From an uncultured bacterium (GTDB lineage: Bacteria; Chloroflexota; UBA5177; JANWHV01), in the NCBI GenBank assembly GCA_963729625.1, contig CAVSOU010000011.1:480001-544000 (forward strand): DNA of 64,000 nt. The letters run 5' to 3'. How positions within the stretch are numbered: position 1 is the first letter of the stretch; each line of letters begins with the position of its first letter. The position numbers were made by a program, and so were the translations under genes. The notes below the pieces were generated by a model, which was not told where the DNA came from, ran no database searches, and was given only the letters and a program-made list of their open reading frames with translations. Positions 22,998 through 27,794 of the stretch are shown one piece after another.

Positions 22998-25900
22998 TTG
23001 AAGGGAAAAACTGTTCGTGTTGCCGTGTTGGCGGCGTTGCTCCCCACCACAGGCTTGACGCTCGCATTCTCGTTGCCAGGCATCAGTACTCCACCAACAC
23101 TTGACGGTCGTGTTGTACTGGTCTCAAGAGGCACCATTACCACCACGCTGACGCCGTCCGGTCAGGCCGCAAACGTGACGACCTACTCGTTGAATTTCTC
23201 GGCCTCGGGCACGGTCAAGTCAGTCAACGTCGTACCGGGTCAGTCGGTCAAGAAAGGCCAGGTTCTTGCTTCAATTGACGATCCATCGTTGCAGCTATCG
23301 CTGATCAGCGATCGGAACGCGCTGAACAATGCTCAGCTGGCTCTGGCAAAGCAACTCGCTCCCCCGAATCCGAACTCACTTGTCCAGTCCCAAGCGTCGC
23401 TCGATCAGGCTCAATCCAAGCTGGCCGCTATGAAGGCAGGCGGCACCGCCGCCTCCATCGCGCAGGCCCGCGCCAACGTGGACTCCGCCAAAGCCAAGCT
23501 CGTGGCGCTGCAATCGGGCACGGCCTCCGCGATCATCTCTGCACAGGCCAGTCTTGATTCCGTTCAACAGAAGCTGGCCGCGATGGAAGCCGGAGGCACC
23601 GCCTCCAGCATCGCCCAGGCGGAAACGACGCTTGCTACGGCCCAGGCCAAGCTGGCAGCCATGCAGACCGGCGGTACGTCCGCGAGCGTCACGCAGGCGC
23701 GTCAAGCGCTCGACGAAGCCAAGACGAAGCTTGCGGTGATGAAGAAAGGCGGCACCCCCGCCAGCATCGCCCAGGCCCGGTCGTCCCTCGAACAGGCCCA
23801 GCTCAAGCTTGCCACAATGAAGAAGGGTGGTACGCCTGTCAGCATTGCGCAGGCCAGGGCTGCACTCGACCAGGCGCAGCTCAAGCTGGCGACTATGGAG
23901 AAGGGTGGCACGTCGACCAGCGTCACCCAGGCCAGGGCTGCGCTCGATCAGGCCCAGCTCAAGCTGGCCACGATGCTCAAGGGCGGTACCGCGGCAAGCA
24001 TCGCCCAGGCCAAGTCATCGCTCGACCAAGCCCAGCTCAAGCTGGCCACGATGCTCAAGGGCGGTACCGCGACCAGCATCGCCCAGGCCAGAGCTTCGCT
24101 CAACCAGGCGCAGCTCAAGCTGGCCACGATGCTCAAGGGCGGTACCGCGACCAGCATAACCCAGGCCAAAGCATCGCTCGATCAGGCGCAGCTCAAGCTG
24201 GCCACGATGCTCAAGGGCGGTACCACGACCAGCGTAGCCCAGGCCAAAGCATCGCTCGACCAGGCACAGCTCAAGCTGGCCACGATGCTCAAGGGCGGTA
24301 CCACGACCAGCATCGCCCAGGCCAGGGCGTCACTCGACCAGGCACAGCTCAAGCTGGCGACCATGAAACAGGGCGGTACCCCGGCCAGCATTGCCCAAGC
24401 CAAGGCATCGCTCGAACAGGCCCAGATCAAGCTGGCGACCATGAAGAAGGGCGGAACGCCGGCCAGCATTGCCCAGGCCAAGGCATCGCTCGAACAGGCC
24501 CAGATCAAGCTGGCGACCATGAAGAAGGGCGGCACCCCCGCCAGTATTGCCCAGGCCAAGGCATCGCTCGAACAAGCGCAGATCAAGCTGGCTTCCATGA
24601 AGCAGGGCGGCACCCCCGCCAGCATCGCCCAGGCCAAGGCATCGTTGCAACAGGCGCAGATCAAGCTCAACGTCATGCAGACGCCTCCTGATCCGCACAC
24701 CGTCGTAGCGGCAAAGGCCAACCTGGACTCAGCGATCCTGAAGCTGACGGCCCTCCAGGCTCCGCCGAACCCGCAGACCGTCGCCCAGGCACAGGCCAGC
24801 CTGGACTCCGCCAAGCAGAAGCTCATCGCCCTGCAAGCCGCTCCTGACCAGAACACCCTTGCTCAGCTTCAGGCGAGCCTGGACTCCGCCAAGCAGAAGC
24901 TCATTGCCCTGCAAGCGCCCGTCAATGCAAACACTCTGGCCTCCGCCCAGGCGAGCCTCGATAGCGCAAAGCAGAACCTGGCCGCGCTCTCCAACGCCGC
25001 GTCGTCGGCAACCGTCGCCTCCGACCAGGCAGGAGTGACACAGGCTCAGAACAATCTGAGCAGCGCGACGACTCCATCAGCTGCGTCGCTCGCCCAGGCG
25101 AATGCAACCCTTCTCGCGGCTCGAAATAAGCTGCAAGTGGATCAGGTCGCTCTATCGCTTCTCGTGCCACCCAACACAAGCGCCATCACCAATCCCACCG
25201 CGCTGCAGACCGCGACGAATACGTATCTGCAAAACCAAGCGCAGGATGAGGCGAATATCGCGAACGACGAGGCCAGCGTCGCGAGTGCGACGGCAGCGTA
25301 TACCGCGCTGACCAACCCGAGCGCCGGCGCGCTGACCCTGGCCCAGCAGCAGTTGACCGCCGCCCAGGCCAAGCTGGCAGCCGACCAGCAGCCAACGCCA
25401 AGCTCGACGGACCTGGCAAAAGCGCAGGACGCCGTCACCCAAGCCCAGGCGTCGCTCGCCAACACGCAGGCCGGCACCACGACGCCGTCCGATATTGCCT
25501 CCGCGCAGGATGCCATCACCTCCGCGCAGGCCTCGCTCAACGCGGCGACCGCCCCGCCGAAGGCTACGGACCTGGCCACGGCTCAGGACGCTCTTGTTTC
25601 CGCGGAGGCCTCGCTCACGACTGCGACGGCACCGCCGGCAGCTACCGACATCGCCTCCGCCCGGGACGCGATCAACTCCGCGAACGCCGCGGTGTATACG
25701 GCGGAGCATCCATACACTGCGCAAGACATCGCGACACAGCAGTCCACGGTGACAAGCGCCGAGGCAGCATACAAGAACGCCCTGCAACCCAACTCGGCGT
25801 CGGATATCGCCACACAGGAACAAGCGGTCAAGACCGCGCAGGTGGCCTATCAGAATGCGCTGCAGCCTAACTCCGCGTCGGACATCGCCACGCAAGAGCA

Positions 25901-27794
25901 AGCGGTCAAGAGCGCGCAAGTAGCCTATCAGAATGCGCTGCAGCCTAACTCGGCGTCGGACATCGCCACGCAAGAGCAAGCGGTCAAGAGCGCGCAAGTA
26001 GCCTATCAGAATGCGCTGCAGCCTAACTCGGCGTCGGACATCGCCTCGCAGGAGCAGGCCGTAGCCGGCGCCAAGGCTGCCTACCAAAACGCCCTGCAGC
26101 CCAACTCTCCGTCCGACATTGCCACCCAGGAGCAGGCCGTGGCCAGCGCCAAGGCCGCCTACCAGAATGCTTTACAGCCTAACTCGGCGTCGGACATCGC
26201 CACCCAAGAGCAAGCGGTCAAGAGCGCGCAGGCCGGCTACCAGAATGCCCTGCAGCCCAACTCGCCATCCGACATCGCCACGCAGGAACAAGCCGTGGCC
26301 AGCGCCAAGGCCGCCTACCAGAATGCCCAGCAGCCTAACTCGCCATCCGACATCGCCACGCAGGAGCAAGTGGTAGCCAGCGCCAAGGCCGCCTACCAGA
26401 ACGCCTCGCAGCCCAACGCAGCGTCGGACATCGCCACACAGGAGCAAGCGGTCAAGAGTGCGCAGGCCGCCTATCAGAATGCGCTGCAACCCAACTCGCC
26501 TTCCGACATCGCCACGCAAGAGCAAGCGGTCAAGAGCGCGCAAGCCGCCTATCAGAACGCCCTGCAGCCCAACTCGGCGTCGGATATCGCCACGCAGGAA
26601 CAGGCCGTGGCCAGCGCGCAAGCCGCCTATCAGAACGCCCTGCAGCCCAATGCGGCCTCCGACATTCGACAGGCGCAGGACGCGGTAACCAGCGCGGAGG
26701 CGGCGTTGGCATCTGCCAAGCAGCCGAACTCTGCCTCGGACATTACCCAGCAGAAGCTCGCAGTACAGAGTGCGCAGGCGGCCTTGGCTGCAGCCAGGCA
26801 ACCGAACACCACATCGGATATCCAGCAAGCGCGAGATTCGGTCACCTCGCAGCAACAGGCGCTCATCACTGCCCAGCATCCCGGCACCGCGACGGATATT
26901 CAGCAAGCTCAGGATTCGTTGATCAGCGCGCAGGCAGCGCTCGACTCGGCCGTCCAACCGAACACCGCGCAGGATATTGCCCAGCAACAAGATGCCGTGA
27001 AGAGCGCGCAGGCGGCGCTGCAGCTGGCGCTTCATCCCTACACCGCGCAAGACATCGCCATCTCGCAGGCGAGCGTCACGGAGGCGCAGCAGTCATTGAA
27101 GGCTGACCAAGCGCTGTTCGCCAGTGAAACGGATATCGTGGCGCCGAGCGCCGGGGTGGTCCAGGTGGTGAACCTTTCGCCCGGACAGGCGTCGTCCAGC
27201 GCCAGCAGTAGCAGTAGCAGCACCAGCACCAGCACCGCGGCCATCCAGATGGCCGATACCAAGGGTCTTGTGGTGACGGCAAGCATCCCTGAAGCCCAGA
27301 TTGGCAGCATACAGCTTGGCGATCCGGTGGCGATGGTCTTCAACGCGTTCCCCAACAGAACGCTCGTCGGCATCGTCAACAGCCTGCCCTTCCAGGCGAC
27401 CACCACGTCGAACGTTACCACCTACCCGATCAAGGTTTCTCTGACGGGGAACCTCAAAGGCATTACGGCCGGCATGACCGCGAACATGACCATTGTCACG
27501 GCGGAGGTGACCAACACGATCGAGGTGCCCACCGCGGCGATTGTCGGCACCGGCACCCGCAGCTTTGTCCGCACACTCGATAAGACGAATAACGAGGTGA
27601 TAACGCCCGTCCAGACGGGAATCAGCGACACAACCTTCACGCAAATCGTCAGCGGCTTGAACGTTGGCGACCGGATCGTCGTACCGACCACCAGCGGCTC
27701 CACCACGACGGGTACCGGCGCGGCCCGCGGCTTCGGTGGCGGCGGCGGCTTCGGCGGCGGAGGCTTCGGCGGCGCCGTACGGATTGGCGGCTAA
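22998..27794 (+). CDS. Giant membrane-fusion (HlyD/MacA/YknX-like) adaptor protein, 1598 aa
   Basis: N-terminal anchor; split lipoyl domain ([25 protein letters not shown] and [19 protein letters not shown]) around a ~1280-aa helical repeat region; beta-barrel [12 protein letters not shown]...[14 protein letters not shown]...VQTGISD...[12 protein letters not shown]; Gly/Phe tail; TGGAGG RBS before TTG. Confidence 0.9.
23757..24692 (+). repeat. 12 homogenised 78-bp coding repeats (outbound arm, ~[26 protein letters not shown])
   Basis: Counted from the translation; 936 bp = 12 x 78. Confidence 0.85.
25719..26654 (+). repeat. 12 homogenised 78-bp coding repeats (return arm, ~[26 protein letters not shown])
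   Basis: Counted from the translation; 936 bp = 12 x 78. Confidence 0.85.

Follow-up and report, generated by a model that had tools for sequence, protein, structure and literature searches.

How do two tandem arrays of different sequence, lying in one gene, come to hold the same number of units, and what protein do they build? The question is raised by a gene in the window, that is, the whole 64,000-nucleotide stretch of DNA analysed here, in which a sequence-only reading had described matched repeat arms without recognising their identity. Judged from its domains and neighbours, the protein is a pump adaptor of the MacA type, and the repeat arms are its predicted alpha-hairpin. We put at about 0.75 the probability that the gene encodes the adaptor of a MacAB-like exporter, in which independent changes of the two arrays are filtered or compensated so that the arms keep ending together.

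A pump adaptor and its operon

The features of the locus, all on the + strand, are as follows.

22998..27794, +, adaptor gene: single open reading frame of 1598 aa with a TTG start; membrane fusion (periplasmic adaptor) protein of the HlyD/MacA type
22998..23285, +, N-terminus (aa 1-96): first lipoyl half, preceded by a hydrophobic membrane anchor (by eye, about aa 8-26)
23286..25157, +, outbound arm (aa 97-720): 24 repeat units (26 aa each); conserved anchors 624 aa apart
23754..24689, +, homogenised block of the outbound arm (units 7-18): eleven tight units, then unit 18 at the edge
25158..25235, +, tip unit (aa 721-746): turn [11 protein letters not shown] rich in Pro, Ser, Thr and Asn, variable among orthologs
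25236..27107, +, return arm (aa 747-1370): 24 units of 26 aa; 650 aa together with the tip
25704..26639, +, homogenised block of the return arm (units 7-18): unit 7 at the edge, then eleven tight units
27108..27791, +, C-terminal part: second half of the lipoyl domain with beta-barrel and membrane-proximal region (aa 1371-1575), ending in a Gly/Phe-rich tail; Pfam HlyD_3, HlyD_D23
27794..28636, +, MacB-type ABC ATPase gene: start overlaps the adaptor stop codon; Pfam ABC_tran 4e-32, NCBIfam MacB N-terminal half 1.6e-84
28633..29967, +, MacB-type permease gene: MacB_PCD 1.7e-38, FtsX 3.1e-21, NCBIfam MacB half 2.8e-67
29873..31114, +, gene 3′ of the pump, with a Gly-rich product that is secreted or membrane-bound: may be a fourth gene of the cluster

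Pfam recognized Biotin_lipoyl_2 at aa 65-94 (34.9 bits; cut-off 29.8) and HlyD_3 at aa 1380-1485 (41.5 bits; cut-off 22.2), with HlyD_D23 at aa 1307-1463 slightly below its cut-off (26.6 versus 30 bits). The lipoyl (barrel-sandwich) domain is split, its N- and C-terminal halves lying on either side of the helical insert, and a beta-barrel plus C-terminal membrane-proximal part (HlyD_3) is present; the region of aa 1371-1575 is 51-79% identical in five orthologs. Partial NCBIfam matches were to RND_mfp, MacA, HlyD and DevB, of which RND_mfp scored 82.9 bits, below its whole-protein cut-off of 94.9, as expected for a model split by a 1274-aa insert. The top PDB match was MacA (4dk0, E 7e-4), and a whole-protein homologue search returned distant adaptors only, with results dominated by repeat words. 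ATG occupies the position of the TTG start in the paralog G001:C8. As no second HlyD_3 gene was found in the genome (87% complete), this is probably its working adaptor.

E. coli MacB is one gene, not split. Here the MacB-type transporter, comprising an FtsX-type four-helix permease with MacB_PCD and its cognate ATPase, is encoded by two genes directly 3′ of the adaptor, and the order adaptor-ATPase-permease is kept in 10 of the 11 related loci whose sequence extends to the adaptor's 3′ end. The protein encoded at 29873..31114 has no Pfam family above cut-off and no NCBIfam match, and tblastn matches to it lie 3′ of the permease in all six metagenome loci. Searches of the window's own genome (87% complete) for the OEP/TolC (PF02321) and Omp85 (PF01103) families gave 0 matches each, while seven diderm control genomes were positive; the TolC/OEP partner of a tripartite (diderm) efflux system was thus not found there. 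The host appears to be a single-membrane cell without an outer membrane, and since no gene of either family was found, the adaptor may be read as crossing the wall of such a cell, with a length of ~25 to 95 nm depending on its fold.

Two unrelated arrays in one register

Set out in rows of 26 from residue 97, the protein holds its register through residue 1370 (1274 residues), giving 49 x 26 aa, namely 24 units outbound, a single tip unit and 24 on the return; the register confirms the count of 24 + 24 units around a central turn made earlier. Chance origin is excluded by this unbroken 26-aa phase together with the counts in relatives. The homogenised blocks occupy mirrored positions 7-18, with 11 tight units and one edge unit per arm, and the sequence-only reading had placed its 12 x 78 bp blocks there correctly to within a few codons of phase. 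Mutual DNA identity is 70-96% among outbound units 7-17 (edge unit 18, 62-73%) and 71-98% among return units 8-18 (edge unit 7, 60-66%). Automated parsing by TRF likewise yielded no clearly unequal arms, with 11.9 copies of 78 bp outbound (23738-24667; 86% matches) and 11.4 copies on the return (25774-26665; 83% matches). The youngest pairs of the gene face one another (outbound 15/16 at 96%, return 9/10 at 98%), and return units 8 and 9 show 10 synonymous codon differences and only one residue difference.

The two arms are otherwise distinct. Their net charges are +34 (outbound) and −30 (return), in agreement with the earlier description of outbound units as Lys-rich and return units as Asp/Glu-bearing, and on both strands no DNA similarity was found between the arrays, only 9-10-nt matches with E of at least 1.1, which bears out the argument that a single tandem duplication could not lengthen both arms. 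A common origin of the two unit types was considered and rejected, the best cyclic consensus alignment being insignificant (shuffle p 0.21). Each unit carries helix-capping signals and a 2-5-residue break (by eye), with GG-TP and Q-P-N-S as stop/start signals; such signals in every unit would suit a chain that is jointed or doubles back no less well than a straight rod.

The three sub-variant units described earlier in each arm are present and mutually facing, as outbound units 15-17 ([19 protein letters not shown]) lie opposite return units 8-10 (AVK[T/S]AQVAY) under i <-> 25-i. The wider claim that sub-variants are mirrored stood within the genus of the window (mirror r 0.60, 0.55, 0.50 and 0.36); in two orthologs at greater distance mirroring is absent or weak (r −0.25 and 0.19). 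The claim is weak because it is reproducible only inside that genus. A candidate contact between Ile at outbound position 18 and non-Ala at return position 22 (at the mirror offset, 7 of 10 rungs versus 2 of 26; p 4e-4) was also rejected: the association is equally strong at offset +1, the position pair was chosen post hoc and the rungs are related by descent, and what it shows is a shared gradient toward the tip, not contact.

Arm lengths in related genes

Arm lengths were measured in amino acids between conserved anchors, as outbound / tip plus return, except for the last two genes, which are given in units.

W (window gene): 624/650 aa, 24/24 units
G001:C12: 546/571 aa, 21/21 units
G001:C8: 546/572 aa, 21/21 units
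G002: 468/491 aa, 18/18 units
L062: 520/545 aa, 20/20 units
L066: 441/468 aa, 17/17 units
G008 (frame of 925 aa) and G013: 284/291 aa each, about 11/11 units each
L065 (metagenome contig): 17/16 units, exactly one return unit fewer than L066 and L070
L064 (metagenome contig): 17/12 units, return arm short

Counts were matched in 8 of the 10 complete genes, spanning six lengths (24, 21, 20, 18, 17 and ~11). When return counts were shuffled among genes, a mean of 1.4 matches was obtained and never more than 7 in 200,000 trials, as against the 8 observed. Matched counts and shuffling together argue for selection on equal arm length. The earlier proposal of selection on register is thereby supported by the eight equal homologs and qualified by the two mismatched ones (17/16 and 17/12), which go part of the way towards the refutation that it had expected from mismatched homologs, unless they are assembly collapses. 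Nothing within the L064 contig indicates collapse, as no two of its return units are more than 81% alike and they contain no exact in-register repeat of more than 24 nt.

The flanking units (six proximal and six to seven distal) are 1:1 orthologous, with 58-84% DNA identity, so only the central blocks vary, and by equal numbers. Block units reach 98-100% identity within a genome versus at most 87% between genomes, and duplication or homogenisation was therefore lineage-specific. Between the window gene and G001:C12, the flank units (572 codons) differ by 210 synonymous versus 132 replacement codon changes, a ratio that indicates purifying selection on them. In G001:C8 outbound units 8-11 (96-100%) lie opposite return units 14-12 (87-95%); the youngest copies in G001:C12 and L062 are not opposite one another. 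Within one genus the counts are 24, 21, 21, 20 (outbound) and 18. A rule of steps of three units (24, 21, 18) was dropped in view of G004 (20 outbound), L062 (20/20) and L066 (17/17), and a merger of the G004 outbound arm with the L061 return arm was dropped as their source organisms differ.

Paired arrays are also found in other adaptors of the phylum, where G041, whose two 21-bp arrays differ from each other and have 13.4 copies each, and P0004, with 3 and 3 units (by eye), are independent cases. Unequal homogenised blocks occur in such adaptors as well (3.5 versus 5.2 units in G283; 3.3 versus 4.0-4.7 in G282/G258).

How the arms may be kept equal

Starting from the observed family, operon, unit anatomy, matched counts and lineage-specific duplications, we propose that the chain would leave the split lipoyl domain, run out along one helical arm, turn and come back along the second, the lipoyl halves closing only if both arms end together. 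Each arm would be assembled from helical modules of 26 residues that carry strong signals for beginning and ending a helix, and the central run of modules in each would have been turned into a homogenised tandem array. As the arrays are without DNA similarity, unequal recombination or slippage would alter the unit number of each separately; only genes with arms ending together would fold properly, and changes in one array would be either purged or offset by a change of the same size in the array opposite. The outcome would be counts that agree between the arms and vary from species to species (24, 21, 20, 18, 17, 11). Unit i would pair antiparallel with unit N+1-i in a two-stranded alpha-helical hairpin, to which the equal arms of 8 of 10 genes lend indirect support; protomers may assemble into a tube on the pump, and the adaptor would serve to carry substrate across a thick envelope. 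The predicted length is ~95 nm if rungs stack end to end and ~25 nm if they are accordion-folded. A further extension, which we consider doubtful, is a jointed modular export conduit or tether reaching tens of nm (up to ~95) from a single-membrane cell, its length being reset by compensated rung changes; block homogenisation would make one-unit slips tolerable, off-by-one forms such as L065 would be living intermediates, and the double hinges of each rung could allow accordion-like extension and folding.

Equal arms might instead reflect the folding (closure) constraint only, with absolute length drifting neutrally in unstable arrays and no ruler involved. Lengths do vary widely among close relatives with no known correlate, and one genome carries a paralog pair of 21/21 and 21/21 of which one copy is frameshifted and lacks an adjacent ATPase gene; yet 17-24 units per arm, up from ~11, have persisted in several lineages, their frames intact and with a synonymous excess, and the gene is the only HlyD_3 gene found in its genome and probably a working adaptor, so that we give drift appreciable weight, short of even odds. 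Somewhat less probable, and on balance unlikely, is that the chain folds back at each GG or QPN break into a compact stack (~25 nm), shaped like an accordion or a solenoid, instead of a ~95-nm rod, for which equal counts would still be required. The capping signals and break in every unit favour such folding, as do the heptad stripe I6-A9-L13-A16-L20-M23, which by arithmetic cannot stay in phase across a 26-residue period, and the alignment by phmmer of the unit junction MKAGGTAAS to a region of MacA that we take to be the hairpin tip. The CusB hairpin, too, is reported to double back, giving a four-helix bundle (PMC4446572). Among solved adaptors, those of the MacA, EmrA and Spr0693 kind nevertheless have extended two-stranded hairpins, and EmrA is described as remaining extended despite matched heptad breaks in both helices (PMC4158417).

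The coupled duplication suggested earlier, in which one mutational mechanism would duplicate facing units of both arms together, gained no supporting evidence and seems to us scarcely credible: facing youngest pairs in the window gene and facing runs in G001:C8 are what it would produce, but the arrays lie ~1 kb apart and share no sequence on either strand, no nameable single event extends both without duplicating the tip, the youngest copies in G001:C12 and L062 do not face, and L065, if real, is a one-arm change. That the arrays or counts are assembly artefacts, or the gene a decaying remnant, is very improbable. Short reads cope poorly with 78-bp repeats that are up to 98-100% identical, three units in G001:C8 are identical, public sequencing runs yield short low-depth contigs of which none spans an array, and two homologs are mismatched; the 4797-nt frame is nonetheless open, and the equality seen in 8 of 10 genes, at six lengths and across different assemblies, which collapse would break, upholds the earlier argument against a random artefact. 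Both mismatches are return-arm deficits, and in L066, the close relative of L065, the return arm has the longer exact repeats (71 versus 25 nt). In the public runs listed the locus has only a small share, and none of these is an RNA run.

Significance and comparison with known systems

Pump adaptors are short hairpins sized to the periplasm. In the window's lineage the hairpin regions have 900-1270 residues, and comparable length was not found among the best 150 representative adaptors (longest 817 aa) or among 150 frames listed for 301 genomes of the phylum (981 aa at most). The MacA-type adaptor is a known kind; what is new here is a predicted hairpin enlarged to ~1,270 residues via matched arrays. 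Under the compensation reading, the locus offers a clean and datable example of a gene whose two unrelated tandem arrays are held equal by a folding constraint, in a series that may contain an off-by-one intermediate, and illustrates how a folded-back rod may change length in evolution by equal addition of 26-residue units to both arms. The natural series of 11, 17, 18, 20, 21 and 24 rungs is material for testing adaptor length against envelope thickness, and modular antiparallel rods are possible parts for building proteins of set length. A long adaptor without an apparent outer membrane to reach also raises the question of what lies outside the membrane in these soil and sediment bacteria.

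That changes in the two hairpin helices are paired is a principle already stated for adaptors (PMC4446572). MacA of MacAB-TolC (A. actinomycetemcomitans, PDB 4dk0) shares with the window adaptor the split lipoyl domain around a helical hairpin (a predicted one in the window adaptor), the beta-barrel and the membrane-proximal parts, and the gene adjoins a MacB-type ABC transporter in both, although sequence similarity is weak (E 7e-4). Its hairpin measures 67 Å (PMC4158417), compared with 1274 residues of 26-aa modules here; MacA has a TolC partner, whereas no TolC family gene was found in the window's genome, and MacB is here divided between an ATPase gene and a permease gene. Spr0693, from the Spr0693-0694-0695 pump of Streptococcus pneumoniae, is likewise a MacB-like pump adaptor in a cell without an outer membrane. 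This Gram-positive MacA homolog forms a hexameric nanotube, a proposed substrate route from membrane to wall, with a helical barrel 56 Å high in an assembly of ~154 Å (PMC5768738); the window arms are more than 10 times longer in residues, and Spr0693 was absent from the PDB sequence-search matches of the window adaptor. The longest solved adaptor hairpin is the 'exceptionally long' one of Aquifex aeolicus EmrA (168 residues, 127 Å; PMC4158417), which resembles the window adaptor in its matched heptad-shift insertions at equal height in both helices. It falls far short of 1274 residues, and EmrA, as described there, works with an MFS pump and TolC and lacks tandem arrays. SMC arms are also intramolecular antiparallel coiled coils whose length is constrained to discrete values and must be proper for function (PMC5344682); they belong to an unrelated protein with another function, show no recent tandem repeats in that account, and their length is conserved, unlike that of the window adaptor, which varies between close species.

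Gene identity and envelope context

The long gene of the window is a single open frame of 1598 aa with Pfam matches to Biotin_lipoyl_2 (aa 65-94) and to HlyD_3 plus HlyD_D23 (aa 1307-1485), partial NCBIfam matches to the RND_mfp, HlyD, MacA, EmrA and DevB models and, as closest solved relative by sequence, a MacA (4dk0; E 7e-4). Together with the MacB-type neighbours, recognized by Pfam and NCBIfam, these domain matches identify it on sequence as the adaptor of a MacAB-like exporter, the repeat region being the predicted alpha-hairpin between the two lipoyl-domain halves. The relevant features are as follows.

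Features in the window
20767-22491, minus: divergent, secreted-looking DUF5666 protein
22998-27794, plus: adaptor
23738-24667: first 78-bp array, 11.9 copies (Tandem Repeats Finder, TRF)
25774-26665: second 78-bp array, 11.4 copies (TRF)
aa 721-746 of the adaptor, plus: tip unit, [11 protein letters not shown]
27794-28636, plus: MacB-type ATPase, next gene 3′ of the adaptor
28633-29967, plus: MacB_PCD/FtsX permease, 3′ of the ATPase
29873-31114, plus: Gly-rich protein with GGQ(T/G)GTGAT repeats, 3′ of the permease

The Gly-rich protein had no Pfam family above cut-off and no NCBIfam match; its N-terminal part is kept directly 3′ of the permease in six of six metagenome loci, which makes it a possible member of the pump cluster. 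The DUF5666 gene occupies the same place in contig C12 of the related genome G001, at 63% identity. Within its own genome (87% complete), the adaptor carries the sole HlyD_3 match, and neither OEP/TolC nor Omp85 was matched there, whereas seven of seven diderm controls were positive. The nearest Atlas clusters hold adaptors commonest in Chloroflexota, a phylum for which excerpts of one study report an outer-membrane gene pattern as in monoderm groups, with the envelope still debated (PMC8871954).

Two unrelated arrays of equal unit number

Laid out in rows of 26, residues 97 to 1370 of the adaptor hold one unbroken 26-residue register, with 24 outbound units, one tip unit and 24 return units. 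When single units were compared, DNA identity was 70-96% among outbound units 7-17 (62-73% for unit 18, at the edge) and 71-98% among return units 8-18 (60-66% for unit 7, at the edge). In each arm the homogenized block thus spans units 7-18 out of 24, and the two blocks face each other if unit i lies opposite unit 25-i. Three EQAQIKLA units (outbound 15-17) are then opposite three AQVAY units (return 8-10), and the net charge is +34 for the outbound and −30 for the return arm. The sequence-only reading had described two different 26-aa arrays of equal count with mirrored sub-variants and opposite charges, and this description of the window gene was accurate. Antisense ORFs of 224-311 aa over the arrays (24182-24856, 25152-26087 and 26172-27050, minus strand) are repetitive Arg/Gly/Leu-rich frames of the GC-rich repeats and are most unlikely to be genes.

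That reading had also held that one tandem duplication cannot lengthen both arrays. This is borne out by the DNA: the two arrays share no similarity on either strand, their matches being of just 9-10 nt (E at least 1.1). The likeness of their consensus units is not significant (p 0.21). At least one event per array was thus required for every change in length.

Arm lengths in relatives

The outbound arm was measured from the P of DPSLQ to the L preceding the tip, and tip plus return from that L to the residue preceding the DQALF..AP anchor.

Arm lengths and unit counts (gene; outbound aa; tip plus return aa; outbound/return units)
Window gene; 624; 650; 24/24
G001:C12; 546; 571; 21/21
G001:C8 (one +1-nt frameshift); 546; 572; 21/21
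G002:C11; 468; 491; 18/18
Metagenome locus L062; 520; 545; 20/20
Locus L066; 441; 468; 17/17
G008 and G013 (another family of the class); 284; 291; about 11/11
Locus L065; 441; 442; 17/16
Locus L064; 441; 338; 17/12

Counts are matched in eight of ten complete genes, at six different lengths. When return counts were shuffled among genes (200,000 trials), a mean of 1.4 matches was obtained and eight were never reached, a contrast overstated by the kinship of the genes; with one gene per outbound length and the worst case taken for 17, five of six still matched. Left out were G004:C32, whose contig ends after 20 outbound units, the truncated genes G015, L061 and L063, and the broken ortholog L070 (tip plus return 468 aa, as in L066), which is interrupted by a stop codon in frame within outbound unit 2-3 (about 2590) and by about 148 nt of unrelated insert in outbound unit 14-15 (about 3560-3710). 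This breakage may be due to chimeric assembly or to a small mobile element. The genome of G001:C12 has a second giant adaptor copy, G001:C8 (L032), in which three outbound units are 100% identical. The frameshift of this copy falls in return unit 5, and its permease gene follows without an intervening ATPase gene; a paralog in decay or an error of sequencing may explain this.

The equality expected between the arms holds in most homologs but not in all. In both exceptions the shortfall is in the return arm: that of L065 is exactly one 26-aa unit shorter than in L066 and L070, and that of L064 has 12 units whose mutual identity does not exceed 81% and whose exact in-register repeats are no longer than 24 nt. 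Exact repeats in L066, a close relative of L065, reach 71 nt in the return arm versus 25 nt in the outbound arm, a pattern expected of assembly shortcuts, of which the contigs themselves give no proof; both genes are counted as evidence against strict equality.

Where the arrays change

Between the window gene and G001:C12, the six proximal units of each arm and six to seven of its distal ones are 1:1 orthologous (58-84% DNA identity, diagonal), and these flank units show 210 synonymous versus 132 replacement codon differences over 572 codons. Only the central blocks change in unit number: the window gene has 11/11 tight units, each of the two G001 genes 8/8, and G002 5/5. As block units are up to 98% (window) or 100% (G001) identical within a genome and at most 87% between genomes, duplication or homogenization was lineage-specific and repeated. 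TRF also found higher-order periods: 156 bp, or two units, in both arms of G002 (L033; 3.2 and 3.0 copies), and 234 bp, or three units, in one arm of G001:C12 (L031). Duplication sometimes involved multi-unit blocks. In the window gene, outbound units 15 and 16 differ at three codons, all synonymous, and return units 8 and 9 by ten synonymous codon differences and one residue; this synonymous excess indicates that the sub-variant sequences are maintained, not merely young.

The proposed mirroring of sub-variants fared unevenly. The block identity matrices of the two arms, correlated under the mirror map, gave r of 0.60 (permutation p 0.004) in the window gene, 0.55 (0.009) in G001:C12, 0.50 (0.035) in G001:C8, 0.36 (0.18) in G002, −0.25 (0.81) in L062 and 0.19 (0.26) in L066, with a permutation null that ignores neighbour similarity and with common ancestry among the four genus genes. 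Under the direct map, r was near 0 or below in the window gene and both G001 genes, and in the window gene other offsets were lower. Young sub-blocks face each other in the window gene (outbound 15/16, return 10/9) and in G001:C8 (outbound 8-11, return 14-12), but are not clearly opposite in G001:C12. Mirrored fine structure is thus mixed, a lead and not a result.

Paired arrays in other adaptors, and rarity

Paired arrays recur among adaptors of the phylum. In the 983-aa frame of an unrelated adaptor (G041:C1, L039), each arm has its own 21-bp (heptad) array, different from that of the other arm (2344-2624 and 3043-3330; 13.4 copies each, TRF); by position arithmetic, their centres are about equally distant from the hairpin midpoint. 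By eye, adaptor P0004 has three units per arm. Homogenized blocks are unequal in G283 (3.5 versus 5.2 units) and in G282 and G258 (3.3 versus 4.0-4.7); in these last two, each arm counts about nine units by eye. The constraint acts on arm length, not array size; the two coincide in the window gene's lineage because the flanks are fixed. The 1760-aa membrane protein P0015, a non-adaptor, has many like modules (G-x-PEEIAxAQxxLxxA, DUF1090-like), so the module type is used outside pump adaptors too.

The longest of the best 150 representatives of 1.84 billion proteins is 817 aa, and the seven of these reaching E 1e-30 are all short pieces (132-474 aa); within the phylum, the 150 HlyD_3 frames listed for 301 genomes reach at most 981 aa. 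Unpublished genomes G055, G018 and G226 enter tallies and listings alone and are the basis of no claim. No paper describing such adaptors was found in a literature search with subscription journals outside its coverage, so absence is unproven; a 2026 review gave no matches on adaptor length or coiled coils, with 'Gram-positive' in the abstract alone.

Possible mechanism, shape and role

The lipoyl domain can form only if the insert's two ends come together, and a rod that runs out and back thus needs arms of equal length. Copy number changes easily in arrays whose 78-bp units are nearly identical. An arm with one unit too many could loop it out or take it up by slippage inside its block of interchangeable units, and a later change in the facing block could restore the balance. 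We infer that excess is tolerated and then compensated; L065, if real, would be such an intermediate. That adaptor coiled coils lengthen or shorten via heptad insertions or deletions in the two helices had been stated by Symmons et al. (PMC4446572), and PMC4158417 describes heptad shifts in EmrA matched in both helices.

Signals for helix start and stop (GG-TPAS and QPNSxSD) were read by eye in every unit, and with a period of 26 residues a heptad stripe falls out of phase, thus the arms are probably segmented. If the unit pairs are stacked in line, an arm of about 637 residues would span about 95 nm at 1.5 Å per residue; if the chain folds back at each break, about 24 pairs of about 1 nm would give about 25 nm. 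The extended form is favoured by analogy with the family. As no outer-membrane partner was found for the window adaptor, its nearest functional model, by analogy, would be Spr0693, in excerpted description a Gram-positive nanotube leading substrate into the wall.
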